A stretch of 64,000 nucleotides of DNA from an uncultured Gammaproteobacteria bacterium (GTDB lineage: Bacteria; Patescibacteriota; Microgenomatia; UBA8517): assembly GCA_964431555.1 (NCBI GenBank), contig CAYSJW010000005.1, forward strand, positions 15,215 through 79,214, in the 5' to 3' direction. Below are positions 7,230 through 58,280 of the stretch, in pieces. How positions within the stretch are numbered: position 1 is the first letter of the stretch; every line of letters begins with the position of its first letter. The notes under the pieces were generated by a model. It had not been told where the DNA came from and made no database searches. It saw only the letters and a program-made list of their open reading frames with translations. Both the position numbers and the translations under genes were made by a program.

Positions 7230-8627
7230 CTACTTTAATCGAAAATATTTTCTTATTGCATCCTGGAGGTACTTTATATTATTACTCGAAATTACATTAT
7301 TATAACCCAACCTTTTTGCCTCCCTTATTCTCTTTTCCTGAGCAATAACTTCTCTTACATCACCCAAAAGTCCCAACTCTCCCAAAGCGAGTAATCTTGA
7401 AGGTAACGGTCTATCAAAAAATGAGGAAGCACAAGAAAGAGCGATAGCCAAATCAATGGACGGGTCATTCTTTACCGTTATACCGCCTGCCAGATTTACA
7501 AACACATCCTGTTCATAAAATGGAATACCACATCTTTTCGTCAAAACTGCCAAAATAAGTTCAAGTCTTTTTAAATCAAATCCCTGAGAAATCCTTTTAG
7601 GAAATGCCATTTTTGTTGAAACAATCAAGGATTGAACTTCTATTAAAATCGGTCTTGTCCCCTGGATGATACAGGATGTTATATTTCCTGCGAAGTTCCC
7701 TTTTTGACTGCCAATAAATATTTTTTCAGGATCAACTACCGAAATAAGTCCCTTGTCCTCCATATAAAACACCCCAACTTCATCTGTTGGACCGAAACGA
7801 TTTTTGACAGCTCTAAGTAGCCTAAAAGTTAAACTTTTGTCACCCTCAAACCACAAGACTGTATCAACGATATGCATCAAAACAGATGGACCTGCAACGG
7901 TACCTTCTTTGGTAACATGACCAACAATAAAAACAGGTACATTCTTTTCCTTAGCCAATCTAACCAATCTGTAAGCGCATTCTCTCACCTGCCCGACCGA
8001 TCCCGCCATTCCTGATAGATCATCCGTTGTCATTGTTTGAATAGAATCTATAATAACTGCCTCTAGCTTCCTATCATTTGAAGAGAGATTATTGGCAGTC
8101 TCTATTATCAAATCTATATCTGTCCCCTCGAGAAGTTTTAAATTGCTATTTTCAATACCCAACCTATCGGCTCTAATCTTTACCTGAGTAACAGATTCCT
8201 CCCCAGAAACATACAAAACCTGAGAAAATGAACTTATAGACTTTTTTTTAGATCTAGCAGTTAAACTTTTTGTATGACTACTTAACTTATCGGCTACCTG
8301 AAGCAAAAGCGTAGACTTTCCTATACCGGGCTCACCTGCTATTAAAATCACCTGACCAGACACCAAACCTCCTCCCAAAACTCTGTCAAGTTCCGGAATT
8401 TTCGTTGAAATTCTCAAAGTAGATTTAGTAGCAATAGACGATAAAGAGACTAATTTAATTTCCCCTTTTGATATACTTGATTTTTCACTTTTTATTTTTG
8501 ATTTTTCTGAAACAATACTTTCAACTGCCGTATTCCACTTGTTACAGGAAGGGCATCTTCCAAACCAACGAAGCTGTTCGTAACCACACTGCTGGCACAC
8601 ATAGTTGGAAACAACTTTAGCCATCAA
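7230..8627 (-). CDS. radA: DNA repair protein RadA/Sms.
   Basis: N-terminal C4 zinc finger CQQCGYEQLRWFGRCPSCNKWNT, Walker A GEPGIGKSTLLLQ, KNRFG motif and a Lon-like C-terminal domain. It contains an in-frame low-complexity insert KSKIKSEKSS encoded by (ATCAAAA)-type repeats near 8466..8505. Confidence 0.95.
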   Translation of the reverse strand: MMAKVVSNYVCQQCGYEQLRWFGRCPSCNKWNTAVESIVSEKSKIKSEKSSISKGEIKLVSLSSIATKSTLRISTKIPELDRVLGGGLVSGQVILIAGEPGIGKSTLLLQVADKLSSHTKSLTARSKKKSISSFSQVLYVSGEESVTQVKIRADRLGIENSNLKLLEGTDIDLIIETANNLSSNDRKLEAVIIDSIQTMTTDDLSGMAGSVGQVRECAYRLVRLAKEKNVPVFIVGHVTKEGTVAGPSVLMHIVDTVLWFEGDKSLTFRLLRAVKNRFGPTDEVGVFYMEDKGLISVVDPEKIFIGSQKGNFAGNITSCIIQGTRPILIEVQSLIVSTKMAFPKRISQGFDLKRLELILAVLTKRCGIPFYEQDVFVNLAGGITVKNDPSIDLAIALSCASSFFDRPLPSRLLALGELGLLGDVREVIAQEKRIREAKRLGYNNVISSNNIKYLQDAIRKYFRLK

Positions 8628-8668
8628 CTAGGATTTTAGACAGAAAAACAAAAATTGTAAACTGAAGG

Positions 8669-9880
8669 TTATTTATAACCTACCGGCTTTGCGGTCAAAA
8701 CAAGTCCTAATGAAAGTTTTTTAGTTTTATCATCTATATCCTCCACATAAACTCTAATTTCCTCACCTTTCTGCAACTTTCTATCGGGAGGAATTTTGGT
8801 AATATGAACCAAACCTTCAACACCAGGCTCAAGTGCAACAAAAACTCCAAAATCAGAAACCTTTACCACCCTCCCCTGATATTCTTTCTCTTTTTCATAC
8901 TTTTCCTTTATTTTATCCCAAGGATCTTCTTGAGTCTGTTTTATAGAAAAAGCAAGCTTACCATCCCTTTTTCCAATTAATCTTACCTTTACCTTATCAC
9001 CGACATTCATAACATTTGAAACTTTTTCAATCTTAGACCAACCAAGCTCAGAAACATGCACTAACCCCTCAATAGGTACTTTCTTCTCTCCTTTGCCGAC
9101 CTGAATTTTTACAAAACAACCAAAATCATAAATCGTCGTGACTTCCCCTTCAAAAATATCACCTACCTTCAAATCCTTAATTACATTTCTTATCCTATCA
9201 AGTTCCTGCTTTTCAGAAACTTCTTTCTCTGAAAAAACTACCTTCTTAAACTCTCTGTCAAAATCAATAACCGCCACCATTATTTTTTTCCCAATAAGTC
9301 CTTGAGGATTTTTTGCGGCTTCTTTACCTAATTGAGTCAGCGGTACAAACCCCATTAGTCCCAAAAAAGTTACAGTCAAACCCGATCCAACAACTCCCTT
9401 AACTTCAACTTCCAGAGGTGTCAAATCCTCTTTAGCTTTTTCAATCTTTTTCCATAGGGCGTCTTCAGCTGAATGTCTTAAAGATAAGATTGTATAACCA
9501 TCGGGAGTTTCTGGAACAAGAACAGTTCCCTCAACCTCATCCCCTAAAGAGAGAGTTTTTATATAATCTTCAGCTTCTTTATATGCTCTTTCGGCAACCA
9601 AACCTTCGGTTTTAGCTCCAATATCCAAAATGAGCTTGCCTTTTGACTTTTCTTTGACTATTCCTTTGATTTTATTTCCAACACCAATACTCGTGAACTT
9701 CGCTCCGTAAAGAGAAAGAAGCTCTTCCATTGTCTGAGGTTCTTTCTTGGAAGATTTAGAAACTTTTAACTTTTTGTTATCTTCTTTAGCTTTTTTTACT
9801 ATTTTTGGCTTCCTTTCCGCCACCTTGCATAACCACCTTTCTAAATTAACTATAACTATTATACCTCTCAAACATATCAC
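8669..9880 (-). CDS. rpsA: 30S ribosomal protein S1, a short form with ~4 S1 domains. The true start may be the internal MEELLSLYGAKF.
   Basis: Repeated S1 RNA-binding domains (e.g. GDKVKVRLIGKRDGKLAFSIKQTQEDPW; GEEIRVYVEDIDDKTKKLSLG). It lies directly downstream of 5S rRNA on the same strand. Confidence 0.85.
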   Translation of the reverse strand: MICLRGIIVIVNLERWLCKVAERKPKIVKKAKEDNKKLKVSKSSKKEPQTMEELLSLYGAKFTSIGVGNKIKGIVKEKSKGKLILDIGAKTEGLVAERAYKEAEDYIKTLSLGDEVEGTVLVPETPDGYTILSLRHSAEDALWKKIEKAKEDLTPLEVEVKGVVGSGLTVTFLGLMGFVPLTQLGKEAAKNPQGLIGKKIMVAVIDFDREFKKVVFSEKEVSEKQELDRIRNVIKDLKVGDIFEGEVTTIYDFGCFVKIQVGKGEKKVPIEGLVHVSELGWSKIEKVSNVMNVGDKVKVRLIGKRDGKLAFSIKQTQEDPWDKIKEKYEKEKEYQGRVVKVSDFGVFVALEPGVEGLVHITKIPPDRKLQKGEEIRVYVEDIDDKTKKLSLGLVLTAKPVGYK

Positions 9881-10004
9881 TCACAACAGGCATTATTTTA
9901 TTCAGAAAACATAAAAGATTTGTAAAATTTAAATTAAAAAATTAAAACCAGCACGCTGAATCAAGTAAATATTATTCATAAAACTTTCTGGGAGTTAAAT
10001 TTAT

Positions 10005-10140
10005 GCTTACGATTCCGGCCTTGACCTATTTTCGCATAGGGTTGCCCCTACACTATCGTCGGCGCTGGAGCGTTTTACAGATCTTGTTCGAAATGGAAAA
10101 GTGTAGTCCCACTCCGCTCACAAGACCGGAATCCTAAGCA
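10005..10140 (-). rRNA. rrf: 5S ribosomal RNA.
   Basis: Reverse complement contains CGAACAAGATCTGTAAAACGCTCCAGCGCCGACGATAGTGTAGGGG...CCCTATGCGAAAATAGG (compare E. coli CCGAACTCAGAAGTGAAACGCCGTAGCGCCGATGGTAGTGTGGGG...CCCATGCGAGAGTAGG). Helix I pairs TGCTTAGGATTCCGG with CCGGAATCGTAAGCA. Ends are approximate. Confidence 0.85.
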
Positions 10141-10297
10141 CAAACAACTTGCTCCCTGACAACTAAAGAGGAGGTCGTAAAAGAATTTTTTCGACCTATT
10201 CGTAGAAGGTAAGCTTAACATCTTACGATGCTTCCACTTCCTTTCGAACAATCTGGTATTCTGCCAGAGGTCTATGACGAGTTCTAATCTTGGGGTG

Positions 10298-10535: not shown

Positions 10536-11304
10536 ACACAAAGTATAGAGTCTGGCGTATAGTCTGTGAGGATTCCAAACTAGAATGATTTTAACATCTG
10601 TCGCTTAGAGTACTTTCTCTTCCGAGTATTCATTGAATAAGAAATATCTAAGATATTCTTCATTCCTTCCCTAGTAAGATGCTTTCCTGACTCAACTAAC
10701 TTTAAAACTTGTTTAAATTTATAAAAAGCATCTCTTTTAATAAAAAGTCTTTTATCAAAGAAAGGAATAATTTTATGCAACAGACTAGATAAATCCCTTA
10801 CTACAAAAGCAAGTGATTTATCGTTTTTATCTGATGAACTATTTTGTCTTATGTAACCACATTGTAATCTATCCTTAAGAGATTCCAAAACCTTTCTGCC
10901 GGAAGGGTTCTGTGAAACCTTAAAAAAATAGATTACCTGCCAGCCATATTTTGTTTCAGAAGAAGGGACAACTCCTATATAAAACATTCCCTCTCCTTCA
11001 ACAAAACCAATAAAATAGTCGTCAGAAAAATACATATCTAGCTTGGTCTTTCCTGCTGGTTGACTCAGAGTTAAGATTTTCACCAGTACATAGATTATAT
11101 ACTAGTACTTAACTATTTAACGAGTGTTTCCAGCATACAGTGGCAAACTAAAATAAATTCAGTTCACCATCCCGTACTTAATAGTACTAGGACCAGATTT
11201 ATCTCAAACTGGGGGTTTGAGCCTGTAGAATACAACAGAGTCCTCAAGATCCAGAACCTCTACAGGAAAGACAGCTCGGTCATCTTGATATGTCTAACAA
11301 GATC
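10536..11304 (-). mobile_element. Group I intron in 23S rRNA domain V carrying a LAGLIDADG homing-endonuclease ORF.
   Basis: 23S collinearity breaks immediately after ...CGTCGCGAGACAGTT (plus coordinate ~11305). It resumes at ~10535 with the GTCGGACCCCTATGGCGACATAGGG region (compare E. coli GTTCGGTCCCTATCTGCCGTGGGCG). The intervening ~770 nt contains ORF 10580..11083. Confidence 0.85.
10580..11083 (-). CDS. LAGLIDADG-family homing endonuclease (intron-encoded).
   Basis: [39 protein letters not shown] carries the LAGLIDADG-type motif [10 protein letters not shown]. 167 aa, embedded in the 23S intron. Confidence 0.9.
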
Positions 11305-11362
11305 AACTGTCTCGCGACGTTCTGAACCCAGCTCACGTACCGCTTTAATGGGCGAACAGACC

Positions 11363-11393
<31 letters not shown>

Positions 11394-11968
11394 CGGTGAG
11401 CCGACATCGAGGTAGCGAACCGCACCGTCGATATGGACTCTCGGGTGCGACTACTCTGTTATCCCCGGGGTAGCTTTTATCCGTTAAGCTCCGCCCACAC
11501 CCATTGTGGATCGGAGGATCACTAAGACCTGCTTTCGCACCTCAAGGCACCATTCAGTGCCCTGCCAGATACCAAATGGCATCTGGGCTCCTGCCGTCAC
11601 AGTCGCAGTCAAGCTGGCTTATGCCTTTGTACATAAAGCACGATGTCCATCCGTGCTAAGCCAACCTTTGTACCCTTGCGTTACTCTTTGGCAAGGTACC
11701 GCCCCAGTAAAACTGCCCATCTAGCACTTTCCCCTGATTCGTTTGCAGAACCATAAGGTAAGTCTTGCCACGCTCCAAAGGGAGGTGTTTCACTTTCCCA
11801 GATACCATAGAGTACCTGGTCCCTCCTACTCTAAACAATTGGTTCGCACAAAACAATGCCAAACTGCAGTAAAGCTCCACGGGGTCTTTTTGTCCGGGTG
11901 GAAGTAGGCCGCGTCTTCACAGCCATCGCAATTTCGCCGAGTAGAGGCTCGAGACAGTTGCTAACTCG

Positions 11969-12002
<34 letters not shown>

Positions 12003-12933
12003 GAGGGACTTCGCTACCGTAGAACAGTTATAGTTACTGCTGCCGTTTACCGGAGCTTGAGTTCGGTGCACATAGCACACAACCATCAACTTCCACACCA
12101 GCCTTATTAGTCGTTAGCTGATTGTCGGTTGTTGAAAGTTGTGCGCTATGCACACCTCCCCTTAACTTACCGGCACTGGGCAGGCGTCAGCCCATATACC
12201 TTACCTTTCGGTTTTGCATGGACCTGTGTTTTTGTTAAACAGTCGGTTAGCAATCGTTAGCTGCGCCCTGAAGCCAGCTTGCGCATGCTTCAGGGAGGAC
12301 ATATCCCTAAGTTACGTCCAGCTTTTTTGCCGAGTTCCTTGAACCTCTTTCTCTCGCTCGCCTTAGTATTCTCTACCAGCCCACCTGTGTCGGTTTGTGG
12401 TACGGCTTGCTTTGAATCTCACTGCGAGCCTTTTTTGAAAGACTGAATAGGATGAAATTGCCCCGCTTTCGCAAGACTTTGCATAACTGCTTGATTAATC
12501 GTTTCAGCGGATTTCCCAACTGCCACTATCTCACAGCTTACACCGGACTTCACGTACCGGCTTCAACTATCCAACCTTGTCAGCCCCCAGCTAGTGTGCG
12601 TTGCACACTTGGGCGATTCAAAACAAATACAGGAATTTTAACCTGTCATCCATCAGCTACCCCCGCAATGCAGGGCTCACCTTAGGTGCCGACTAACCCG
12701 TCGCGGACGAACCTCCCGACGGAAACCTTGGGCATTCGGCGGAGGGGATTCTCACCCCTCTAGTTCGCTACTCATACCGGCATTCTCACTTCCAAACGCT
12801 CCACCACACCTTACGGTATGACTTCACCGCATTTGGAACGCTCCCCTACCGGGGATACCAAACGGTACCCCCCTCTGGCTTCGGTATCATTTTTAATCCT
12901 CGATAAATCTTCGGCGCCGTAAACCATCAACCA

Positions 12934-12992
<59 letters not shown>

Positions 12993-13505
12993 ATGATTTT
13001 CGACTTCCTTTCAAACTTAAAATGAATTTAGAGACCTTAGCCGAGAGTCTGGGTTGTTTCCCTCTCGTCTTATCAGCTTAGCCCGATAAGACTGTCTAGC
13101 AAGTTTTCGCACATCATTATTCGGAGTTTGGTTGGAATAACTCGGTTGCCCTCGCTATCCCATCCAGTAGCTCTACCACTAATGTACCTACCTTGCCACG
13201 GTGCCTATACACCTTTCGGGGAGAACCAGCTATCTCCAGGCTCGATTGGCATATTACCCCTATCCACAAGTCATCCGAGCTTATTGCAACAAACACCGGT
13301 TCGGGCCTCCCCCTAGATTTCTCTAGGGTTCACCCTGCTCATGGATAGATCGCTCTGGTTTCGGGTCTCGCCACACTTTCTAGGGCACTATTCGTACCCA
13401 TCCAAAATGGAATTCGCTTTCGCTACGCCTCCGTTCTTTAAAGAACTTAGACTTGTGAAAATGAGGCGAACTCGCCGGTTCATTCTTCAATAGGCACGCT
13501 ATCAC

Positions 13506-13640
13506 ACCTCGCTTCACTCGGTGTTCAAAAAATCAAAATGAAAAAGAATAAATATTAAAGAATTAATAAACTTTTATCTCTTAAATACTCATCTTACACT
13601 TTTCATTTTGAAGTATGAATTTGAGCGTCGAGTGAAACGA
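13506..13640 (-). other. AT-rich hairpin insertion (intervening-sequence-like expansion) inside the 23S rRNA 5' half.
   Basis: ~130 nt of ~20% GC inside otherwise ~50% GC rRNA, with an inverted repeat CAAAATGAAAAAG...CTTTTCATTTTG. It is flanked by conserved 23S sequence. Confidence 0.5.
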
Positions 13641-13709
13641 GATGCTCTAGCGGTTTGTCCGCAAACAGTTTCAGGTTCTATTTCACTGGGCGTCCCGCCC
13701 TTCTTTTCG

Positions 13710-13741
<32 letters not shown>

Positions 13742-14650
13742 TTTCAAGCATATTTAGCCTTGGAGGATGGTTCCCCCAGATTCCCACAGATTTTAGACCG
13801 TGGTACTTAGGATACTTCTAGAGGTTGGTTTAGTTTCACATACGAGGCTTTCACTCTCTATGGCCTTCTATTCCAAGACGTTCTGCTACCAAACCAACTC
13901 CCACAATGAAGTCCTGCAACCCTCTTTCGTTCCCGAAGAAACAAAAGAGTTTAGGCTATTGCCGTTTCGCTCTCCACTACTAAGGCAATCACTATTGTTT
14001 TCTTTTCCTCACCCTACTAAGATGTTTCAGTTCGGATGGTTCCCTCCTCGCACCTTATAGGTACTCACAACAATCAACAATCAACCAACAGATATTGTAA
14101 GTTCCGCGGAGCGGAACACGTCGACTGTTAACTGTAGAGAGTACCTCTTAGGGTACGGGTAGTCGCTTTTGAAAGCAACTGGGTTTCCCCATTCGGACAC
14201 CGCCGGATCACTGGATCGTGGCTCCTACCCGGCGATTATCGGAAGCCTTGCCCGTCCTTCTTCGGTGCTTGAAACCAAGGCATCCACTGTCTGCGTTAGT
14301 AAAAGACTTTTACGACCTTGTCCGTAATAGCTTGTACAAAGTACACGCATACGGACCTACTTCCCCAAATTAAAAGATCAATATTGGGGATATCTTTCCT
14401 CTTTAGTTGTTAAGGAGCAAATCAATTTTAGATATAAGATCTAAGATACAGGATACAAGATTTAAGATTTCAGTTCAAAAAATCTTACTTCCTACTTCCT
14501 TCATCTTACATCCTAATTCCAACAACTAACCACTCACAACCCACAACTCACCACTTATTTCCCACTACCCATATATTCTTGATTCTTGGTAAACGGAGAC
14601 TCGTGATCAAAAAGCCAAATCACCAATCTCCGATTAGCAAAAATCAAATG

Positions 14651-14724
14651 TGGACCCGGAGGGAATCGAACCCTCTACCTCCTCATTGCAAATGAGGTGT
14701 TCAAACCTTGTAAACTTCGGGCCC
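14651..14724 (-). tRNA. tRNA-Ala (anticodon UGC).
   Basis: Reverse complement GGGCCCGAAGTTTACAAGGTTTGAACACCTCATTTGCAATGAGGAGGTAGAGGGTTCGATTCCCTCCGGGTCCA. The anticodon loop is TTTGCAA, with G3:U70 and an A discriminator. It lies upstream of 23S as expected for a spacer tRNA. Confidence 0.88.
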
Positions 14725-14954
14725 TAACCCCCACGGATCTTTTAATTTTTTTAATCTGCAAAACAAAAAAACCCGCTCATTAAGGCGGGTTGACTAAACA
14801 AAAGGAAACCTCTTTCACCCACAAAAGGGGGTATTAAGATTGGTTTCTTTGTGAATTTTCATTATTTTCATCAAGCAACTCGCCTTAAGGCAAGGACAAT
14901 TATATTACACTCTGTCAAGACAAGTCAACCACAATTTTTTTCAAAATATCTCCC

Positions 14955-15839
14955 CTAATTGATTGATTCTTGAATAATTTCTCTGGCTTGATTAATAGGT
15001 AATTTTTCGTTTTTTACATTAACCTCATCAGGCAAATTCTTTCCCCAAATTTCCAAAATTCTTTGTCTATCATTTTCATCCGTAACTAACTGCTTAAATC
15101 TCTCCCTTACAAAATTAACGAAAAAGTATGGATTAACTTCTGCAAAAGGATTTTCAATCCCATTTTCATATATCAATCCTAAAAGTCTCCTCTCATTTTG
15201 ACTAAATAAATCATTACCAATCTGATCCATGACTCTCATAAAAACACTAAATGGAGATTTTTGGTCTTCAGGCATGTATTTCGTTTCGTTTATAAGATGT
15301 TTGACAAATTGATTATACCTTTGCTTTTTTTCCTCGCCCAAATTGGAATTATTAATTAAAAATTCAGCAATAGCTTGACTCCTTTCTTCCGCAACTTTGC
15401 CTGTAAAAACATCTTTACCAGCAGTATAGTTGGGAAGGAAAGAAGGTTTAATATTGCCACTTCTTACCGAGAGAAAACTTATTATATTACCAGTATCGTG
15501 GGTATAGATTGCAAACATTATAGCTTCAGACAATTCATCTTCCGGAATAATTAAGTCTGGATGAGAATTATTCCACAAATCCAACGACTTATACAATTCT
15601 AACGGATCATCATCTCTAGAACATCCATCCATATACTTTTTTACAGCACCCACTACTGCTTCAATGTGGCGTCTATTATGAAAGGAGTCTTTATTATTCC
15701 ATACCTCGCTATCAAAAGTATCATGCCACGTAAGACATTTTTCCCAAATTTCCTGGGGCGATAATTGCTCCTTTAATCTACTAGTCTCATTCTCAACAAT
15801 TACAGTTTGAATTTCCTGATTTTCAAGAACATCTGTCAT
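14955..15839 (-). CDS. HD-domain (metal-dependent phosphohydrolase superfamily) protein encoded between tRNA-Ile and tRNA-Ala of the rRNA operon.
   Basis: A 294-aa ORF with H...HD motifs (FHNRRHIEAVV; AIYTHDTGNI) and later acidic residues. It is on the same strand as, and between, the two spacer tRNAs. Confidence 0.55.
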   Translation of the reverse strand: MTDVLENQEIQTVIVENETSRLKEQLSPQEIWEKCLTWHDTFDSEVWNNKDSFHNRRHIEAVVGAVKKYMDGCSRDDDPLELYKSLDLWNNSHPDLIIPEDELSEAIMFAIYTHDTGNIISFLSVRSGNIKPSFLPNYTAGKDVFTGKVAEERSQAIAEFLINNSNLGEEKKQRYNQFVKHLINETKYMPEDQKSPFSVFMRVMDQIGNDLFSQNERRLLGLIYENGIENPFAEVNPYFFVNFVRERFKQLVTDENDRQRILEIWGKNLPDEVNVKNEKLPINQAREIIQESIN

Positions 15840-15939
15840 TTAATAACCCTTGATATATATGATATATACTTCATTTTACCAACCTGGAAAATAAAATTAA
15901 AACAAATCTCCTTTATTTATAAAAATAGTTCAGTTTTTG

Positions 15940-16012
15940 TGGGCGGCCATGGAATCGAACCATGCACCTCTTACTTATCAGGTAAGCGTTCTAACCGATG
16001 AACTAGCCGCCC
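15940..16012 (-). tRNA. tRNA-Ile (anticodon GAU).
   Basis: Reverse complement GGGCGGCTAGTTCATCGGTTAGAACGCTTACCTGATAAGTAAGAGGTGCATGGTTCGATTCCATGGCCGCCCA. The anticodon loop is CTGATAA and the cloverleaf is canonical. Confidence 0.9.
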
Positions 16013-16181
16013 GAAAATATACTAAACTGTTTACTACAAATAAAATTTTACATTTATTTTTTTCCAAAAACAACCCACCACCCACTACTCACAACCCACA
16101 ACTCACTACCCACCACTCACAACCCACAACTCATATCTCACCCCCCCTTCTTTTACTCTGACTTAAATGTATAATTAGATT

Positions 16182-16880
16182 ATGGAAAAACTAACCACAC
16201 TTGCCCTCAAGCTTCCCAGAAACACTCAGGTTACGCCGGAAGCGGCAAAAACCTTCCTTTCTGCACTCATCCAAATTAACTTTATCTCTACCTTTAAAAA
16301 ACTTTTCGGCACTAAAAGAAAACCTTTAGCTTTAGAGATTGCTCTTATTAATCAACAAATCTACTTTTTGATAACTACGGATAACGAACTTATTCCCTTT
16401 ATAGAAACACAGATTACCTCAAATTACCCCTTGGCGATAATCGAAAAGACAAAAGACCCTCTTGAAGTAATTTCTTACAATTTAGTCAACATTTTCCTTC
16501 AAAAAGGAAACTATTATCCAATTGCCACATTTGAAAATTTTCAAGAGGTTGACCTACTCTCTTCAATACTTTCTGTTCTTGCGAAATCCGATCCAGACGA
16601 AGTCACAGTCATTCAATATGCACTTGAATCAACAAATAATTCTTGGCAAACAAAAGGAGCGGGCTTTGCAAAAAAAGGAACAAAAAACCCCGATGGTACT
16701 TATTCCCCAAGATTTGATTTAAATATCATAAACGAAAAAATTTCTTACCCAGGTTTCAGATGTAGCATCCGAATTATTAGTAATGCAAATAAAACCCTAA
16801 ATGAATTGTCAAGTGCCTTTGGTGTCTTTAATAGATCCGACGGAAATTACTTTATTTCTCAAAGACCTAATTTTTTTTAA
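16182..16880 (+). CDS. Hypothetical protein.
   Basis: A 232-aa ORF with ordinary composition for this genome; no recognisable motifs. Confidence 0.45.
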   Translation: MEKLTTLALKLPRNTQVTPEAAKTFLSALIQINFISTFKKLFGTKRKPLALEIALINQQIYFLITTDNELIPFIETQITSNYPLAIIEKTKDPLEVISYNLVNIFLQKGNYYPIATFENFQEVDLLSSILSVLAKSDPDEVTVIQYALESTNNSWQTKGAGFAKKGTKNPDGTYSPRFDLNIINEKISYPGFRCSIRIISNANKTLNELSSAFGVFNRSDGNYFISQRPNFF

Positions 16881-17027
16881 TAATAGGAGTATAAAAACTA
16901 AACCAACCGGAAAGTAAAATATACTCAGAACCTTCATCTATTACCAGCTTTTATCAGAGGTAATAATATAACACAAGGCAACTTCATCCCAAAAGGAAAA
17001 TGTTAACAAATTTTACCTTCTTATCCT

Positions 17028-18317
17028 TTATTTCCCACCCCTACCTTTTCCTCGCTCGGAACGAGGGGGATGGTTTCCTGGAGTCTGTCCACGCTCATCG
17101 TTCGAGGGGTTTCTATTATTACTATTTCCTGGATCGCACCCTTCAGGACCATTACCAATACCTTGATTACATTTTCGCTTATTTTCCCCAGGAGTTTCCG
17201 GTGTTGGCTCTAATGTTGGCTCCGGTGTTGGCTTAGGAGTAGACTCGGTAGTTGGAATGCCCTGTTGCGGACCATATTCCTCGCCTCTAGGGACCTCTCG
17301 CACAACACCACCTACAGGGACAAATCTCCCACCATCAACACCACAAGGACTCCCATTTGAATCCCCACTATCTTGATCTCCAATAACTTTTTCTAGCCCT
17401 CGGTTATAAAGGTCTGGAGTATTGGCAAGAGAGAAGACCTCAACCCTTAGACCTTGACCGTCAGTAACCGCCGCTAATAAAACGGGGTTTCCGGAATCTT
17501 TTCCACGAAAAATTTCTTCTTCCCTTCCGTTACCCGGTTTTTCCACACCTCCTCGAAAACTAACTCTTGCCACATTCTCAAGCTGAGGACCAAAAAGAGG
17601 ATAGCCCAGATATGTTTCATTGGTATCAAAGTCAGGACCAATAGTCCACCATTTCCCATCAACATTCTGGGGTTGAATAGCAAGATCGTCATAGGCTATC
17701 CTTTCAAATAATCTCCTTCTTTCTTCCTGAACAGCAGGATGAAAAGGATCTTTACCTTGTAAACTCAAGAAACCATCAACATAAGCAAGAAGCGCTTTAT
17801 CAATCTCTTTTGCTTCTACAATTGCCCAGCCTCTACTGTAACCGTCATTACCTTTTCTTAGCAAGTCACCTCTACCTAGCAAATCCGAAGTTCTCAAATT
17901 CGCCAAATCGTTAGGAGTAAAGCCAAGACCCTGCCCATCATTTTTAAGATCAAAATCCAAACCTCTTTCCCACAAAGCGCCCTTAACTCCCTTAGGACCT
18001 CCAACAGGAGCGGTTAATTGGTGAAACATTCTATCATGCATATTAATCCTAGCATCCACGGCTTCCCTCAGAGGATTCTCTCGGAGTTCCCCATTAAGAT
18101 CTTCTAGTCTTCCCCTAAGATATTTTCCAAACGTTTCAGGAGTTACAATATTTATACCACCATTTTCTACTGCTGCAAAATTAACACCCGCTGGATGGCT
18201 TGAAATCGGATATTCGCGAGACGCTTCTGGACCTTCAACGAATAGAGCACCACCAGCCACAGCTGCTAGTCTTAAAAAATCTCTTCGTGATAATCGTGGT
18301 AATCTGTCGACTGCCAT
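17028..18317 (-). CDS. Tat-signal (twin-arginine) exported hypothetical protein with a Pro/Thr-rich C-terminus, compositionally atypical (~48-50% GC).
   Basis: N-terminus MAVDRLPRLSRRDFLRLAAVAGGALF (S-R-R-x-F-L motif plus h-region). The C-terminal tail is TPKPTPEPTLEPTPETPG-rich. Local GC is clearly higher than the flanking ~33%. Confidence 0.6.
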   Translation of the reverse strand: MAVDRLPRLSRRDFLRLAAVAGGALFVEGPEASREYPISSHPAGVNFAAVENGGINIVTPETFGKYLRGRLEDLNGELRENPLREAVDARINMHDRMFHQLTAPVGGPKGVKGALWERGLDFDLKNDGQGLGFTPNDLANLRTSDLLGRGDLLRKGNDGYSRGWAIVEAKEIDKALLAYVDGFLSLQGKDPFHPAVQEERRRLFERIAYDDLAIQPQNVDGKWWTIGPDFDTNETYLGYPLFGPQLENVARVSFRGGVEKPGNGREEEIFRGKDSGNPVLLAAVTDGQGLRVEVFSLANTPDLYNRGLEKVIGDQDSGDSNGSPCGVDGGRFVPVGGVVREVPRGEEYGPQQGIPTTESTPKPTPEPTLEPTPETPGENKRKCNQGIGNGPEGCDPGNSNNRNPSNDERGQTPGNHPPRSERGKGRGGK

Positions 18318-18567
18318 ACCTTCCTTTTAATTGTCTTTACTATACCAAAAAGGAGGCTTCTTGTCAACTACAGGATGTTTTTTACTCAAAACAAGTATAA
18401 CTCACAACATGATATCTCTTAGGCATTTGCACAAGAGGTAGTACAAACTGCTCTTACCTCCTTGTCTTGCTGTTAAATCTTTACCCACCCTCCCCCAAGC
18501 TGTTTTTTATTTTCTTCCGAGAGGCTAGGCTATTTTCAGGCAAAAGTGTTATCATAAATAAAGCCCA

Positions 18568-19332
18568 ATGAATAACCACAAAAAGTTATTTATCTACACA
18601 ATTCTAATAACTACAGCCTTCTTTCTAACTCGACTAATAAATCTGACCTTACAACCTATTTTTTGCGATGAAGCTATTTACATAAACTGGGCCCAAAAAA
18701 CAGAGAACAATTTTAAGCTAAACGCTTTTTTGCCTTTAACAGATGGTAAAACTCCACTTTTTATGTGGGCAACTTCATTAAGCCTTAAAATTTTCAAAGA
18801 TCCTCTTTTTGCTGGAAGAATAGTCTCAGTTCTTGCCGGTTTTTCTTCTCTCATCGCCGCTTTTTTTCTCGGAAAAGAAATTTTCAAAACAAAAACAGGA
18901 ATTATCTCTGCTATTCTGCTAACTTTTCTGCCGTTTACTCTGTTTTTTGACAGAATGGCCCTAGTTGATTCAATGCTTGCCACTTTTTATCTTTGGTCCT
19001 TAGCGCTTGCCTTAAAAATATCTCAAAAGCCCAAGGTCAAAACAGCCGTTCTTTTAGGCTTAAGTTTGGGAGGAGGGATATTAACCAAAACCCCGGGAAT
19101 TTTTGCTTTTATCTCTTTACCCTTCATACTCATTGCAACCAACTTAAAAGATCTTAAAAAGGTAGCACTTAATCTTGGTCTTTCCGCTTTTATTGGTTTC
19201 TTTATTTTTAACCTGCTTAGAATTAGCCCCTATTTTGAAAACTTGTCAAAAAGAGACTCTGGGTATTACTTTCCCATAAGACATATCCTAGAAAACCCCA
19301 CAAATCCACTAACTGGAAATACAATAGGGTAA
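18568..19332 (+). pseudogene. N-terminal fragment of a GT-C fold (GT39/GT83, ArnT/PMT-like) membrane glycosyltransferase, truncated by IS insertion.
   Basis: Polytopic membrane N-terminus with FCDEAIYINWAQ (DE..Y loop motif of PMT/ArnT-type transferases). The ORF ends after 254 aa with a TAA lying inside the IS inverted repeat (GGGTAAAGT), whereas family members are ~450-550 aa. Confidence 0.5.
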
Positions 19333-26414: not shown

Positions 26415-26446
<32 letters not shown>

Positions 26447-51437: not shown

Positions 51438-53021
51438 CTAAATTTTAATTAGAATGTGGTTTGAATCATTATATAGAAAGGTATCGTAATATTTTTCAAC
51501 CTTATCTAACCTTTCCTCATCAATCAATCCCTTCCAAATAAGAAGATAATCAACTCCCGTATTTTTAATACGATCATCAAACTCTTTACTTGGAAAGTTT
51601 TGCCAATATAAACTTCTAAGTTCATTAATACTCTCCGGCTCAAACCCGCTGACTCCGCCTAACAAATACTTCCCATGATAAAGAGAATAAACCATTCTGT
51701 GTGTTTCCAAAACCGCAACTTCACCAAACGCCCAAGAGAAAATCGGAAGTTCCAAAAGCACACCTTGAGGTAAACCCTTTATATAGGTATAAACTTTTGG
51801 ATACTCACTAACTTTGCCAAATACAAAATAATTAGCCCTTTGGGTCAAAGGAAAAAATACAATCGCTAAAATGATAAAAAACAAATAAATTTTATCTAAT
51901 TTTTTACCCTTAATTACCTTTGCCAACCCCAAAGAAAGCAAAAAAGCCGATGAAAAAAGCGCCAGCCAAATCCACCTTCCCGGCGCCCTAAAAGCCGAAA
52001 AACCGGGAAGTAAATAATATAAAATCCCGTATGGAAGAGGAAGAAAAAATTTATTAAATAACTTTAAAGTAAAATCTCCAATCTTTAAAACAGGACCTAA
52101 ACTTAAAATTAACCCCGATAAAAAAAGAAGTAAAAGCCACCTTTCTCCTTTATGACTTAATTTTATCTTTTTGAAAAACACCAAAAGCAACATCGCCAAA
52201 AACACTCCATCGGAAAATACACTTTTTAAAAGCTCATCAATCCCAGGCGAAAAGTTAGCCGCATCACGAATTGACCTTGCCAAATGATACTCTTTCGCAA
52301 CCAGCCAATAAATCCTTGCGGGTATAAACACAATTGAGACTGAAACCAGAAAAAAAATTAAAAAGTAAACTCTTTTCTCCCAAAATGCTTTGAAGTTATC
52401 AATAATCAAAAAAAGTATTATCAATCCCGCAAAATAAACCCCTAAAGGACTTTCCCACATTTGAGCTCCAAAAAATATGGCTGAAGTAATTAAATACCAG
52501 AAAACTTTTTTTCTAAAATACTTCCAGATTAAATACACTGAAAAAAGCCACCACTGATGATTCCACATCTGAAGGTGTGCAATAAAACCCATTCTCGTTA
52601 CCGATATTCCCAAAGCCAAAGAAGAGATAAGGGCTGCGGTTTTACTTTTGCTTGCCTCCCAAAACCACAGATAACAAATTATAATTGTCGTTATTTGTCC
52701 GAAAAGCAAAGAGGTACTTATTGCAACAAGAGGCTCCTTGGTTAGTAAAACCGGAATATAGGAAATAATTGCCGAGGGGATATGCATATCCGAAAACGCC
52801 ATAACATTTTTATAAGAATAAAAAATATTCGCCTGAAATAAATTAGAAAGATCGAAGGGAATCTTTTTAATAGTCTGGTTTAAATACCAAACCATCAAAA
52901 CACCATCCCATTTTTCCGCAACGCGCTTTTCCGGATCCTGAATTATCGGCCAAAGGCTAAAAATCGAAATCAAAAATATCACTGCAAAAGGCAGAAGATG
53001 GCTTTTTAAAAAAGCTTTCAT
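51438..53021 (-). CDS. Large polytopic membrane protein, possibly a GT-C-type glycosyltransferase.
   Basis: 527 aa with more than 12 predicted TM helices. Family assignment is uncertain. Confidence 0.45.
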   Translation of the reverse strand: MKAFLKSHLLPFAVIFLISIFSLWPIIQDPEKRVAEKWDGVLMVWYLNQTIKKIPFDLSNLFQANIFYSYKNVMAFSDMHIPSAIISYIPVLLTKEPLVAISTSLLFGQITTIIICYLWFWEASKSKTAALISSLALGISVTRMGFIAHLQMWNHQWWLFSVYLIWKYFRKKVFWYLITSAIFFGAQMWESPLGVYFAGLIILFLIIDNFKAFWEKRVYFLIFFLVSVSIVFIPARIYWLVAKEYHLARSIRDAANFSPGIDELLKSVFSDGVFLAMLLLVFFKKIKLSHKGERWLLLLFLSGLILSLGPVLKIGDFTLKLFNKFFLPLPYGILYYLLPGFSAFRAPGRWIWLALFSSAFLLSLGLAKVIKGKKLDKIYLFFIILAIVFFPLTQRANYFVFGKVSEYPKVYTYIKGLPQGVLLELPIFSWAFGEVAVLETHRMVYSLYHGKYLLGGVSGFEPESINELRSLYWQNFPSKEFDDRIKNTGVDYLLIWKGLIDEERLDKVEKYYDTFLYNDSNHILIKI

Positions 53022-53025: not shown

Positions 53026-53931
53026 CTAACCCAAGAGGTTTTTCAAAGTTTCCGGTATTTTGTCAGCCAAATCATCCGAATTAAAATTAACTCCCACCTT
53101 CTCATATAGTTCATCAGCTGCCTTTTTAATAATAAATGAAGCGCTCGCGGCAGCCAGAAATGGCTCATTTTTGGCCAAAAGAGCAACCGTTAATCCCGCC
53201 AAAATGTCACCGGTTCCTCCCTTTGTCAATCCTGCATTACCGCCTTTTACCAATGCACAATCATTTGGTGAGGCAACAATTGTTTCCGGACCCTTCAGAA
53301 CTATCGTACAACCATATCTCTTAACCATCTCCCCTACAATTTTTGAGTTTTGATCTGTCATTTTGATATTTGATTTTTGAATTTTGACTTTGAACAACAT
53401 CTCAAATTCCTTAGTATTTGGTGTCAGAATCGCTTTTTCCGGTATCCATTCTACATCCATCACCTGCAAACTTCCCGCGTCAATTACCCAACGCTTTTCT
53501 GGAAATTGCTTTAATAACCTTTGAGTTATATTCCTTGTCTTTCTCCCCTCAGAATCATAACTTCTTATTTCAGAACTTCCATTTTGATTTTTGATTTCTG
53601 ATTTTTGATTTTCCCTCCTGTATCGCATAAATCCCGGTCCTATCAAAACAGCGTCGGATTTTTTAATATATGCATCAACATCCTCCCAAGGTACCCAGAT
53701 AAAAGACATTAACTCTGACTTAATCCGATTTGTAACTTCTCGAAAGCTTTCTTCAGGTGATGCAAAAAAAACCATATCCACAATACGCGAGGCTACTTTT
53801 AACGACAAAATCGGCGCTCCATGGAAAAGTTTCGACCCACCAATAATTGTTACCTGTCCATTTTGTTCACCAGATGATAAAGGATGAGGTTGATATAATT
53901 TTTTTAATTCATTTGGATCAAAGGTTCTCAT
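53026..53931 (-). CDS. nnrD: ADP-dependent NAD(P)H-hydrate dehydratase (YjeF C-terminal domain).
   Basis: GGSKLFHGAP...VIDAGSL...KGGNAGLTKGGTGDILAGL matches the YjeF_C carbohydrate-kinase motifs. It contains two in-frame low-complexity inserts encoded by TTTTGAT repeats (53341..53392, 53582..53612). Confidence 0.8.
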   Translation of the reverse strand: MRTFDPNELKKLYQPHPLSSGEQNGQVTIIGGSKLFHGAPILSLKVASRIVDMVFFASPEESFREVTNRIKSELMSFIWVPWEDVDAYIKKSDAVLIGPGFMRYRRENQKSEIKNQNGSSEIRSYDSEGRKTRNITQRLLKQFPEKRWVIDAGSLQVMDVEWIPEKAILTPNTKEFEMLFKVKIQKSNIKMTDQNSKIVGEMVKRYGCTIVLKGPETIVASPNDCALVKGGNAGLTKGGTGDILAGLTVALLAKNEPFLAAASASFIIKKAADELYEKVGVNFNSDDLADKIPETLKNLLG

Positions 53932-54607: not shown

Positions 54608-55738
54608 TTAAACTTTCAATTTAATTTTTTCCACTTTCTCAAATCTTTCTACATAATGCGGGTCAGCTGTTGTGATTATCGTTTGTTGCCCCTTTGTAGC
54701 TTCAAAAACAATATCTCTGTGCTCATGGTCAAGTTCAGAAAAGATATCATCAAGCAGAAGCGTTGGCTTTTCTTTGGTTACCGACTCAATGTAAGATAAT
54801 TCCGCCAGTTTCAGCCACAAAACTCCCATTCTTTGCTCTCCCCTACTTCCGTATCGCGCAAGCTCTCTTTCTTTCTTTCCCGCACTTGTTTTCTGATTTT
54901 TGATTTTGAAAATCATATCATCTCTGTGCGGCCCAACCAAAGTTGAAGCAGCGGCTACTTCTTCTTCAGCGTACTGATTTAAGCGAGCTTCAGAAATTGC
55001 ACTTGGATCGTATTCCAAACTAAACCTCCCGTTTATATCGGATTTTAAAATTGGAATTTCTGACTTATTCGCAAATTCTATAAACTCACGCCGTTTCCCG
55101 CTTAAATAATCGCCATTCTTAATAAGAAGCTGATTCCAAAAAAGAAGTTGCGTACGGGATATTCCCTCTTCTCTTATTCTCCAAAGAAGTCTATTTCTTT
55201 GACGCAAACCTTTCTCATAAGAAAGCAAAGCACGCCTATATTCCCTATCCACCTGCGATAAAACAGTATCCAAAAATTTTCTTCTTTTAGAAGGCTCCTC
55301 GGTAACCAGTTCCAAATCCCACGGTCCAAAAAGAACTACCTTTAAATTTCCGGTGAAATCAAAAAGTTTTTTGCTAACCCCGTTTAACAATAATTTTTTT
55401 CGTGTAACTTTGGAAATTTTTCTCGGATTAGCTCCAACCGTAATCTCCCCTCTTGTTATAATAACTTCTAAATTAGTGCCAACTCGTTTTCCCCCTTCTT
55501 CTTTAACAATGCTTCCCTTAATTCTTGTTATCTCTTCATAATAATTGATCATTTCCTCTTCAATTCTTGCCCGAAAACTTTTTCCTGTTGAAAGGACAAA
55601 TAAACTTTCCAATATGTTTGATTTACCTGATGCATTCGGTCCAACAATAAAGTTCACATATGGTGAAAACTTGAGAAGTTTATCTTTAAAGTTCCTGAAA
55701 TTTTTTAGTTCCAACTTTGTAACAATCATTAGTTTCAA
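54608..55738 (-). CDS. recF: DNA replication and repair protein RecF.
   Basis: N-terminus KLELKNFRNFKDKLLKFSPYVNFIVGPNASGKSNILESL (Walker A) and C-terminus LLLDDIFSELD (Walker B / signature). Confidence 0.9.
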   Translation of the reverse strand: MKLMIVTKLELKNFRNFKDKLLKFSPYVNFIVGPNASGKSNILESLFVLSTGKSFRARIEEEMINYYEEITRIKGSIVKEEGGKRVGTNLEVIITRGEITVGANPRKISKVTRKKLLLNGVSKKLFDFTGNLKVVLFGPWDLELVTEEPSKRRKFLDTVLSQVDREYRRALLSYEKGLRQRNRLLWRIREEGISRTQLLFWNQLLIKNGDYLSGKRREFIEFANKSEIPILKSDINGRFSLEYDPSAISEARLNQYAEEEVAAASTLVGPHRDDMIFKIKNQKTSAGKKERELARYGSRGEQRMGVLWLKLAELSYIESVTKEKPTLLLDDIFSELDHEHRDIVFEATKGQQTIITTADPHYVERFEKVEKIKLKV

Positions 55739-55772
55739 ATAATAAATCTAATTTACCAGAAATAATTTCACA

Positions 55773-56645: not shown

Positions 56646-56737
56646 AGGGATATTATAAAGCAGAAAGTTGAATGTAGAAAGTAGAAAGGAGGTTTTCTGG
56701 TCGACCAAATTGTTAATTGTTAAATCTTGGAATCAAA

Positions 56738-56790
56738 CACCCGAAAGGTTCAAACCTATTCAACCCGTCGGGTTGGAACTTATTAGAACT
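56738..56790 (+). repeat. Diverged copy of the CCCGAAAGGTT..AACCCGTCGGGTT hairpin repeat.
   Basis: CACCCGAAAGGTTCAAACCTATTCAACCCGTCGGGTTGGAACTTATT matches the core of the repeats at 30811..30852 and 32350..32490. Confidence 0.8.
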
Positions 56791-57143
56791 TACTATTTTC
56801 CGACACATCGAGGACAACTATCAATCCATTTCACTGCTTCTTCTCTATTATTAGTTTCCCTCACATCAGAACCAAACTCATCTTTTACCCATGTTCTATC
56901 TGTTTCCAGTTCATCTGGGTCAGTTATTCCCTGTTCATTAAAATCAGGGCTAGGAAAGGCAAATCTATGTCCAGACGTATCCGTATACAAGAAATATGTT
57001 TCCTTAACTCCTTTATTCATGAAAAAAACATTTTATATCAACACTGTCTTTCGCAATCACACTGTACTTATCCAGTTTAAATGCATACTTTCTTCCCTTT
57101 TTCCCTTAATTTCTCAAAAACATCAACGAACAAAGCAAACTTG

Positions 57144-58280
57144 TCAATCCAATAGCTTTCCATTCCCCGAAACTTTCTTTACTAACCTTTTGATACTCTC
57201 TACGAATCTTTCTTTAGAAAATTTTAATGCATTTTTTTGGAGAGTTGCTTTACTCCATTTTTTAGTTTCAACTCTTTTAATTGCATCACGAACTGCTTTC
57301 TCACTTACCTCATTAATCAAAACACCCGTCACTCCGTCAATAACTGACTCTCTAAATCCCCCTCCGTTAAAGGCAATAACTGGTGTTCCCGCGGCTTGAG
57401 CTTCAACCACAGTCATACCAAAATCTTCATCTTGTGCTAAAGCAATAAACCCCTTTGCCTTTGCGTAAAGCTCATATAACTTGTCATCAGATACTCTTCC
57501 AATCAATTCGATATTTTTTGATCCTTGATCTTTAATTTTTGATAAAACATCCGAGTATCCTGCCGCTTCACCAACTATTTTAAGTCTGTAATTACAACCC
57601 AATTTTGAAAACACTTTCACTGCCTCCTCCAAACCCTTAGCACCCACTAATCTGGAAACTATTAAAAAGTAGTCCTCTTTACTTTTGATTTTTGATATTT
57701 GATTTTTGATTTTATTTACGTCCACCGGCGGATAGATTACAACTGAATCTCTTCTATAAAATTTCTCAATTCTTGATGCTACGTTTTTGGAATTAGCGAT
57801 CCAGAAATCAACACTTTGAGCAGTTTTGAAATCATAAAGCCTCATAAAATGCCCAACAATTGCAGCATAAACCTTGACAGGTAAATATTTGGTAAAGCCA
57901 ATCGAAGTTTTATAACCATAAAGCCACCTTGGAGGTGTATGACAATAGGCAATCACTTTAGTTCTAGAACCTATCTTAAAACCTCGGGTTATATACCAAC
58001 TACAAGAAGTTATAATCAAGTCATACTTTGAAAGATCAAAACTTCTCCAAATTAATGGAGTTAGAAAACGCAAGGGAGAATAAAGTTTACCAATCTTTAA
58101 AAGGGGCGCCAAAAAACTTTCGTGAATTCTCCTACCCCTAAACACCTTTTCAGCTGTACTTCCTTTTACCGAAAATGCCGTATAAATTGGAGCTTTTGGG
58201 TAAATTTCTGATAACACTTTAAGCACCCTTTCTGCACCGCCAAACTCCCTCAAATAATCGTGTAACAACGCAACTTTCAC
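57144..58280 (-). CDS. Glycosyltransferase family 4 (GT-B).
   Basis: The C-terminal domain with EDFGMTVVEAQAAGTPVIAFNGGGFRESV is a GT4 signature. It contains the in-frame insert NKIKNQISKIKSK from (TTTTGAT)4 at 57683..57713. Confidence 0.85.
   Translation of the reverse strand: MKVALLHDYLREFGGAERVLKVLSEIYPKAPIYTAFSVKGSTAEKVFRGRRIHESFLAPLLKIGKLYSPLRFLTPLIWRSFDLSKYDLIITSCSWYITRGFKIGSRTKVIAYCHTPPRWLYGYKTSIGFTKYLPVKVYAAIVGHFMRLYDFKTAQSVDFWIANSKNVASRIEKFYRRDSVVIYPPVDVNKIKNQISKIKSKEDYFLIVSRLVGAKGLEEAVKVFSKLGCNYRLKIVGEAAGYSDVLSKIKDQGSKNIELIGRVSDDKLYELYAKAKGFIALAQDEDFGMTVVEAQAAGTPVIAFNGGGFRESVIDGVTGVLINEVSEKAVRDAIKRVETKKWSKATLQKNALKFSKERFVESIKRLVKKVSGNGKLLD

Follow-up and report, generated by a model that had tools for sequence, protein, structure and literature searches.

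The 64,000-nt stretch analysed here, referred to throughout as the window, spans positions 15,215 to 79,214 of contig CAYSJW010000005.1, has a G+C content of 36-37% and carries nearly all of its genes on the minus strand. Among these are conserved genes for RadA, the NAD(P)H-hydrate dehydratase NnrD, RecF and a glycosyltransferase of the GT4 family, and our subject is a set of tandem arrays of a 7-nt unit, typically TTTTGAT on the plus strand and ATCAAAA on the coding strand, which lie in frame within these and other genes of the window. The rRNA genes form an unlinked set (16S at 25898-27399, 23S at 11235-14310 and 5S at 10013-10130). Homologues of NnrD and RadA bear the names Candidatus Woesebacteria, Microgenomates or Patescibacteria, and the contig comes from the genome of a member of Candidatus Woesebacteria (Microgenomates, Candidate Phyla Radiation (CPR)). 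We compared the window with four near-identical assemblies (ENA ERZ27245602, JGI 3300022548, JGI 3300010284 and Logan SRR5216256), over 4.7-20.9 kb; contig ERZ27245602:k141_228336 of the ENA assembly (67,956 nt) is 100% identical to it. For comparison across the clade, 80 syntenic loci were fetched from other species, and synteny provided orthologue alignments for NnrD (79 sequences), RecF (73), GT4 (60), peptidyl-tRNA hydrolase (Pth; 43) and protein-L-isoaspartate O-methyltransferase (PCMT; 18), while 120 RadA homologues were aligned separately from these synteny-based sets. A protein-seeded search of metagenome contigs for strain-level relatives gave a best match of 68% identity and no strain series.

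The original prediction, made from the sequence, had listed five in-gene arrays. All five are present, on the minus strand of genes whose identities we assigned with Pfam, and Tandem Repeats Finder (TRF) reports period-7 arrays at or adjoining every coordinate given for them. In radA (7230-8624), about six loose units (ATTTTTC/TTTTGAT on the plus strand) at 8466-8507 encode SEKSKIKSEKSSIS in the linker that connects the zinc ribbon to the ATPase domain. The nnrD gene (53026-53931) holds two arrays: site 1 (53581-53613) is clean, with 4.4 units and 91% matches (TRF 53582-53612), and encodes ENQKSEIKNQN, and site 2 (53339-53392) is long and degenerate, with about 7.7 units and 70% matches (TRF 53339-53391), and encodes KVKIQKSNIKMTDQNSKI. 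About three units at 54886-54912 in recF (54608-55729) encode KIKNQKT in the hairpin that precedes the ABC signature motif, and 4.4 units with 91% matches at 57681-57714 (TRF 57683-57713) encode NKIKNQISKIKSK between the two Rossmann-like halves of the GT4 glycosyltransferase (57144-58280). The peptides quoted earlier for these sites are all correct on translation, but the list was an undercount, as three further minus-strand arrays had been overlooked. The PCMT gene (43625-44278; PF01135) contains an array of the TTTTGAT family at 44033-44062 (TRF, 4.3 copies) that encodes NQKSKLKNQK and includes two perfect units at 44048-44061. The Pth gene (42272-42853; PF01195) contains 7.3 copies (TRF) of ATTTTCA on the plus strand at 42707-42757, encoding IQNLKLKNKNCDLKFKN. 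In a conserved 99-aa open reading frame (ORF; 41473-41772), GTTTTAA units on the plus strand at 41489-41517 (TRF, 4.1 copies, 81% matches) encode the Lys/Leu-rich C-terminal tail LKTKKLKLKT, and the tails of the orthologues are variable. In all, no fewer than seven housekeeping proteins have in-frame 7-nt arrays in their flexible loops. None of the array-bearing ORFs is broken, and each array is flanked on either side by sequence that aligns with the orthologues.

The presence of the arrays at the predicted positions is borne out both by TRF and by a two-unit TTTTGAT probe, TTTTGATTTTTGAT, which with at most one mismatch has 17 matches in the window compared with 0.34 ± 0.54 in dinucleotide-preserving shuffles. 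A lag-7 detector agrees with TRF on the period-7 tandem structure. The TRF calls for radA (8480-8507, 4 copies of ATTTTTC, 76% matches) and recF (54886-54907, 3.1 copies, 80% matches) are marginal. Under one detection rule the window contains 26 arrays of period 7, against 0.69 ± 0.81 in local shuffles, and 10 of period 6, one of period 8 and none of periods 9-12. The arrays are not an artefact of assembly, as they are present in the ENA, two JGI and Logan contigs, which are 99.98-100% identical to the window with no gaps. The heptamer observation is real.

Codon choice within the arrays tracks the heptamer and not the usage of the genome. Lysine is encoded by AAA in 28 of 28 codons (70% genome-wide), serine by TCA in 8 of 11 (20%) and isoleucine by ATC in 5 of 12 (13%), and Lys, Asn, Ile, Ser and Gln make up 80% of array residues compared with 31% elsewhere. 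The arrays are therefore repeats at the level of DNA. A coiled-coil heptad, which would be a protein-level repeat of 21 nt, is ruled out because identity occurs at a lag of 7 nt and the codons track the repeat. Three units, (ATCAAAA)3, read ATC AAA AAT CAA AAA TCA AAA, or I-K-N-Q-K-S-K, and are free of stop codons in any frame. The TTTTGAT orientation reads TGA in all three frames, so the genic ATCAAAA arrays are all found in the sense orientation. A search with the query (IKNQKSK)x6 against 5.8 billion proteins, which cannot reach short arrays, recovered 14 hypothetical ORFs, all of them short (44-71 aa), and no long ATCAAAA array in a real protein; these 14 matches are probably spurious ORF calls over intergenic arrays of other bacteria.

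Array-bearing loops and their orthologues

In the orthologue alignments, all of the genic array sites are length-variable loops. NnrD site 2 is 14 aa longer than the modal 17-aa segment of the 80 orthologues and site 1 is 7 aa longer than the modal 16-aa segment. The RecF segment exceeds the shortest orthologues and PDB 5Z67 by 9 aa, the PCMT segment exceeds the modal orthologue by 4 aa, and the Pth segment has 29 aa compared with 5 aa in the shortest orthologues, a difference of 24 aa. As judged from these alignments, the arrays at the two NnrD sites and in RecF, PCMT and Pth are net insertions. The RadA and GT4 arrays, by the same measure, overwrite an ordinary loop at near-equal length, because the RadA linker has 57 aa and the mode among the 120 homologues is 55 (+2 aa), and the GT4 segment has 24 aa and the mode is 23 (+1 aa). 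In GT4, the ancestral EKIIKATxDLKKE is replaced by NKIKNQISKIKSKE, and the ancestral DNA already had one AAAATCA; NnrD site 1 is heptamer-periodic at ordinary loop length in several relatives. The proposal that each array adds a loop consequently stands for RecF and both NnrD sites but fails for GT4 and RadA, where a loop is replaced. An associated rule, that whole arrays must comprise multiples of three units to preserve the frame, does not hold, since the arrays do not come in multiples of 21 nt and only the net change must be a multiple of three. Even when applied to the net change, a 21-nt rule fits the two NnrD sites alone, and RecF (+9 aa), PCMT (+4), GT4 (+1), RadA (+2) and Pth (+24) are misfits.

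Most orthologues are without the array segments, as are the solved RecF structures. We modelled the structure of NnrD alone, and the AlphaFold model has a mean pLDDT of 86.9, with values under 50 for residues 110-121 (site 1); for site 2 it gives coil (residues 181-190) followed by the start of a helix (191-206). The array segments are hydrophilic, predicted to be disordered and, as modelled, lie outside the conserved fold. The view that these are selection-filtered DNA repeats in coding sequence is upheld by their single orientation, their location in variable, low-confidence loops and the absence of the segments from most orthologues.

Under a strict threshold, 12 or more lag-7 matches out of 14, period-7 arrays recur at the same six loops in different species: at NnrD site 2 in 8 of 80 sequences, at NnrD site 1 in 5 of 80, in RecF in 13 of 74, in GT4 in 10 of 61, in PCMT in 6 of 19 and in Pth in 6 of 44. 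The units at the orthologous loops of other species mostly differ from those in the window (AAATTCC, AAATTCG, AAATACG, AAATCAC and TTCAAGR, amongst others). The segments had been expected to be lineage-specific insertions, and this is correct in that they are missing from most orthologues, but 6-30% of the other Woesebacteria orthologues have period-7 arrays at these positions. The NnrD site-2 array is clearly orthologous in the window and in four of the syntenic loci (L007, L009, L022 and L036), with equal length and an identical interruption, and its variant unit AATATCA is kept in L007 and L009, whose proteins are 65-68% identical. Because length, interruption and, in these two loci, the variant unit are common to relatives, the site-2 array must be old and fairly stable.

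RadA also has a second lineage-specific low-complexity insertion, KLSSHTKSLTARSKKKSISSFSQ, at 8249-8286 (residues ~113-126), which is absent in 42 of the 120 homologues.

Heptamers between genes and across the clade

Seventeen of the 26 period-7 arrays in the window are intergenic, and their units belong to a second family, described as G/T-rich and C-free on the sense strand (AGTGAGT, AGTGGGT, AGTTGTT and TAGCAGT). When the window and the 80 syntenic loci are taken together, 63% of 214 period-7 arrays fall within ORFs, which account for 82% of the DNA, and arrays are therefore depleted in coding sequence. In the arrays within ORFs, A accounts for 47.5% of the sense strand, and the commonest unit is AAAAATC. 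The density of period-7 arrays per 10 kb is 4.06 in the window, 3.19 in relatives with an NnrD identity of at least 62%, 1.25 in those with 55-62% and 0.56 in those below 55%, and the corresponding values for period 6 are 1.56, 1.5, 1.5 and 0.9. The more distant the relative, the lower is the density of period-7 arrays, while period 6, the control, stays almost level across these groups; the period-7 habit is a trait of the clade. The genic arrays are the coding fraction of this genome- and clade-wide heptamer habit, which is mostly intergenic in the window.

The habit extends to the structural RNA genes. In the 23S rRNA, an expansion hairpin at 14056-14146 on the minus strand has 91 nt in place of 5 in the Rfam model, with a fold of -47.5 kcal/mol (z = -6.7) and a GUUGAUU/GUUGGUU array at 14067-14090. 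A second expansion hairpin, in the 16S rRNA (27127-27219, minus strand), has 93 nt in place of 3 in the Rfam model, a heptamer array at 27129-27161 and a fold of -45.2 kcal/mol (z = -6.1). In both hairpins the 3' arm is a heptamer array of the GUUGNUU type.

Spacers made up for the most part of degenerate arrays of this second family are located at 14430-14565, 16070-16133, 20341-20437, 20820-20854, 22096-22129, 23756-23933, 33090-33125, 41807-42289, 56667-56728, 58613-58633 and 59594-60250. The intergenic arrays often lie directly 3' of stop codons or a few bases 5' of start codons, and are sometimes opposed in orientation, so that pairing is possible. At 58613-58633, units of the TTAGTAG type overlap an exonuclease gene's stop codon. 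The 650-nt spacer at 59594-60250 carries AGTGAGT, AGTGGGT and AGTAGGA on the sense (minus) strand, and immediately 5' of the exonuclease start codon there is an opposed TTTAGTA/TTAGTGG block, with a 32-nt inverted match. The spacer that separates Pth from the 99-aa ORF (41807-42289) includes a direct duplication of 126 nt, with copies at 41807-41932 and 42115-42240 that are 94% identical. A conserved 26-nt motif, TTATCCACTTYGATRATTCGAATCAT, which contains the perfect palindrome ATGATTCGAATCAT, is present in exactly two copies, at 41985-42010 and 59889-59914, each in the middle of a heptamer-rich spacer, and the first of these is bracketed by the 126-nt duplication. This motif could act as an operator or a promoter element, or it could be a small RNA.

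Origin and persistence of the arrays

The window and a JGI contig (L002) differ by three substitutions in total over 20,906 nt, all within 11 nt of the RecF array, and these convert AAAATCA-AAAATCA-GAAAACA into three perfect units with no change in length. Over 17 kb shared with another JGI contig, Ga0212092_1000892 (L114), three of eight substitutions cluster in the 38 nt of the second RadA insertion (S115T, K126E and one synonymous change). Within the window, the NnrD site-2 and GT4 arrays have in common the 20-mer TCAAAAATCAAATATCAAAA, and the NnrD site-1 and RecF arrays have in common an 18-mer, in each case with variant units included. Pairs of units within one mismatch of each other make up 16% of comparisons within a genome and 8.9% between genomes, a difference exceeded in none of 2000 permutations. 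Together with the replacement of loops at the same length, these observations suggest short-patch copying or template switching between arrays, which, if true, would point to an unusual property of replication or repair in these reduced genomes.

Our analysis establishes that the repeats are real, DNA-level, clade-specific and length-stable, and that they sit in permissive loops, to which they add or which they overwrite. As to their nature, we think it likely that the arrays are DNA-level heptanucleotide simple sequence repeats (SSRs) of the Woesebacteria clade that persist in coding DNA only where they are tolerated. According to this explanation, the clade would generate 7-nt tandem repeats unusually often, most of them between genes and some in rRNA hairpins. 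An array could persist within a gene only if its orientation is free of stop codons in all three frames, if the net change in length is a multiple of three, and if the loop or linker tolerates a hydrophilic, disordered segment rich in Lys, Asn, Ile, Gln and Ser. Arrays may begin at A-rich seeds, such as the AAAATCA in the ancestral GT4 loop, and may grow by replication slippage or by microhomology-mediated template switching. Now and then they might be re-patterned by short-patch copying from other arrays, which would account for the same-length replacements, the variant units common to different genes and the three-substitution patch in RecF. They would then be tolerated, slowly decaying passengers without dedicated function, rather than switches for phase variation.

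Several considerations weigh against this explanation. Slippage of ±7 nt would shift the frame of a housekeeping gene, so simple slippage cannot build the arrays stepwise, and three-unit, compensated or patch-copying events are therefore required, none of which has been directly observed here. The support for copying between arrays is circumstantial, and the concordance of units within genomes could partly reflect base composition. The 11-mer AAAATCAAGTA, which spans the three RecF differences, has one further occurrence, within the RadA array, but a match also arises in 17% of shuffles, and the RadA array as donor of the RecF patch is thus a lead only. The populations compared are nearly clonal, low-frequency length variants are invisible in consensus assemblies, and sequence from this genome covers only ~68 kb. 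Finally, the encoded Lys-rich loops, or an RNA or DNA motif, may have a function.

One alternative, an unlikely one in our estimation, is an active, genome-specific process that writes or homogenises heptamers at microhomologous sites, through ectopic short-patch conversion, a templated polymerase or retroelement activity. That a process of this kind in a Woesebacteria subclade re-writes loops, rRNA hairpins and spacers with the current unit of each genome is likewise unlikely. Both ideas draw on the equal-length replacement of loop sequence, the 20-mer and 18-mer with their variant units, the three clustered substitutions that give perfect RecF units in another population and the greater agreement of units within than between genomes, and on the fact that six of about eight genic arrays here use one unit while the orthologous loops elsewhere use others. 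However, the strings in common are short and of low complexity, the chance test for the donor match is weak and the concordance effect is only about two-fold. Moreover, no candidate enzyme was found: the genes of the window, as annotated with Pfam, do not include a reverse transcriptase, and the PF05635 gene described below stands alone. If true, this would be an undescribed mutational mechanism that makes disordered segments and rRNA expansions in CPR bacteria.

Selection at the protein level is, we believe, quite improbable. It would favour flexible Lys/Asn/Gln-rich loops, for example for contact with nucleic acids or membranes in a small-celled symbiont, with repeats as the cheapest route to them. 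The recurrence of such segments at the same loops in 6-30% of orthologues from many species, and the preserved length and pattern of the NnrD site-2 segment in several of them, would agree with this, and disorder-creating tandem repeats under selection have been reported in Borg elements (PMC9879509). Against it, most orthologues are without the segments, the proteins concerned are functionally unrelated (repair, metabolite repair, glycosyl transfer, protein repair and translation), the loops are disordered and of low confidence, and the repeat dictates the choice of codons. The same 7-nt habit is, in addition, displayed by spacers and rRNA hairpins, which make no peptide. Borg elements are similar to our case in that tandem repeats of DNA within ORFs yield disordered, hydrophilic segments, but their genic units are divisible by three, perfect and recent, whereas those in the window are 7 nt long, are translated in each of the three frames, are degenerate and are partly old.

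The original prediction had raised the possibility that the arrays are a contingency or slippage substrate, so that slippage by one unit would toggle RadA, RecF, NnrD or GT4 as in phase-variable loci, giving, for example, transient mutators or surface variants. We regard this as very improbable. A 7-nt unit within an ORF would indeed shift the frame on slippage, as do the non-triplet units of known contingency loci in Haemophilus and Neisseria (e.g. PMC2651432, PMC8262952), two of the array-bearing genes serve DNA repair, and the RecF array is the sole place at which two assemblies differ over 20.9 kb. But the tracts of those loci are long, perfect, variable in copy number both between and within strains and located in genes for surface structures, restriction-modification or host interaction, and none of these features holds here. 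The arrays are short and degenerate, with no more than two perfect consecutive units in the window and three in the L002 allele of RecF, and RadA, RecF, NnrD, PCMT and Pth are housekeeping proteins, GT4 alone being possibly related to the envelope. The RecF difference preserves both length and frame, and the NnrD site-2 array has been retained since the split of species whose proteins are 65-68% identical. The length polymorphism between strains that might have been expected was not found, as there are no gaps at any of the heptamer arrays (8 genic and ~17 intergenic) among the consensus sequences of the four near-identical assemblies, which are 99.95-100% identical. By contrast, a 12-nt tandem repeat, TGTTGGCTCCAA on the plus strand at 17197-17233, is 48 nt (16 aa) longer in L114, where the ORF that contains it (17028-18317, no Pfam match) encodes 445 aa rather than 429. 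Near-identical populations thus genuinely differ, in frame, in the copy number of this repeat, and the comparison is therefore able to reveal repeat instability. A flank-gap-flank scan for array-length variants, TCAGAACTTCCA N{10,40} CCCTCCTGTATCGCATAAATCC, gave no matches in metagenome contigs, a collection evidently without these contigs; the pattern does match the window and L001-L004.

That the arrays are low-complexity sequence produced by chance where the genome is rich in A and T, or artefacts of assembly, is scarcely credible in spite of the ~36% G+C, the common A-rich codons and the marginal TRF scores of the RadA and RecF arrays, since the excess of probe matches and period-7 arrays over shuffles, the preponderance of period 7 over periods 6 and 8 and the identical sequence of four independent assemblies refute it for the clean arrays and leave chance arguable for the RadA array only.

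Returning to the heptanucleotide SSRs that we favour, among the long SSRs of prokaryotes (LSSRs, with 5-11-nt units) heptanucleotides are the commonest class, for which an origin by polymerase slippage has been put forward (Mrazek et al. 2007, as relayed in PMC4679880). The arrays in the window have the marks of this class, namely tandem 7-nt units, an excess over composition and dispersed loci with a lineage-specific propensity. Likenesses to the LSSRs of 2007 are the 7-nt tandem units, the many dispersed loci, the excess over chance, the sporadic phylogeny, the proposal of slippage and the disfavour of non-triplet units in coding DNA. Differences are that the CPR lineage was unsampled at that time, that the arrays here are short and degenerate, and that a sizeable in-frame subset occupies recurrent orthologous loops of enzymes. 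The TAACTGA heptamers of Beggiatoaceae, cyanobacteria and Bacteroidetes follow the same logic of orientation and stop codons as here (MacGregor 2015; PMC4679880). They too consist of 7-nt units in direct repetition, located for the most part between genes and in many cases adjoining start or stop codons, with stops in all frames of one orientation, only the other orientation within ORFs and a few ORFs that have repeat-encoded peptides. The units in our clade are different and far more heterogeneous, with no clade-wide favoured heptamer, and TAACTGA repeats within genes are found chiefly at the ends of proteins or in hypothetical ORFs, compared with the internal loops of housekeeping enzymes seen here. 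No TAACTGA array appears in the TRF or lag-7 detector output for the window, the units of which are diverse.

The short tandemly repeated repetitive (STRR) elements of cyanobacteria have CCCCAAT, TTGGTCA and CAACAGT as their canonical units, and to our knowledge they have not been described as occupying loops of enzymes in frame. STRR heptamers occur inside the RNase P RNA gene of heterocystous cyanobacteria (Vioque 1997, as cited in PMC2858038), and their intergenic copies form hairpins (PMC2670836). The arrays of the window are similar to STRR sequences in having 7-bp units, several families per genome and intergenic, hairpin-capable copies, and in placing units within structural RNA genes where they lengthen a helix, in this case the 16S and 23S hairpins. 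They are not STRR sequences in the strict sense, as the host is not a heterocystous cyanobacterium and the units are ATCAAAA, AGTGAGT, AGTTGTT and others. The arrays fit the general heptanucleotide-SSR class, are neither STRR nor TAACTGA repeats sensu stricto and fail the features of contingency loci. A literature search found no description of heptamer repeats in CPR bacteria or Woesebacteria; the lineage and the units are new here and the heptanucleotide SSR class itself is known.

The proteins and rRNAs of CPR bacteria (Patescibacteria) are noted for unexplained lineage-specific insertions. In this clade, one DNA-level 7-nt habit supplies material for enzyme insertions, rRNA hairpins and spacers alike. 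Two aspects of it deserve attention, namely the repeated use of orthologous enzyme loops and of rRNA expansion hairpins, and the hints of patch-wise re-patterning. It also offers a natural experiment in which selection passes non-triplet repeats with a single orientation, a net in-frame change and a location in loops only. For annotation, it implies that stretches rich in Lys, Ile, Asn, Gln and Ser should not be taken for functional motifs or for frameshift-prone sites.

Other features of the window

The 11.5-kb gap between the 16S and 23S genes (14311-25897) contains tRNA-Ile(GAT), a transposase of the IS1595 family (19403-20134), a LAGLIDADG ORF (25113-25559), several ORFs without a Pfam match and a fragment of a PMT-family gene; a second LAGLIDADG ORF (10580-11083) lies between the 23S and 5S genes. 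Also in the gap is a gene of 90 codons (20447-20719) for a '23S rRNA intervening-sequence protein' (PF05635), flanked by nested inverted arms at 20311-20434 and 20818-20909 that consist mostly of heptamer arrays and are 76-81% complementary. The whole (20311-20909) resembles the stem-loop cassette of an intervening sequence, placed in the 16S-23S gap instead of within the 23S gene. A diversity-generating retroelement, which the Avd-like PF05635 gene brought to mind, was rejected, since the window encodes no reverse transcriptase and the arrays do not constitute C-terminal variable regions.

A tRNA-Ala is usual just 5' of the 23S gene, where ARAGORN calls a 91-nt tRNA-Pro(AGG) at 14650-14740; the Rfam tRNA match is confined to 14651-14724, and this tRNA may be mis-typed or may bear an insertion. 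An ORF of 161 aa with weak Pfam similarity (22186-22671) contains five copies of a 24-nt (8-aa) repeat at 22312-22430. Directly 3' of nnrD, a 527-aa ORF (51438-53021) with no Pfam match is kept in all of the near-identical contigs.

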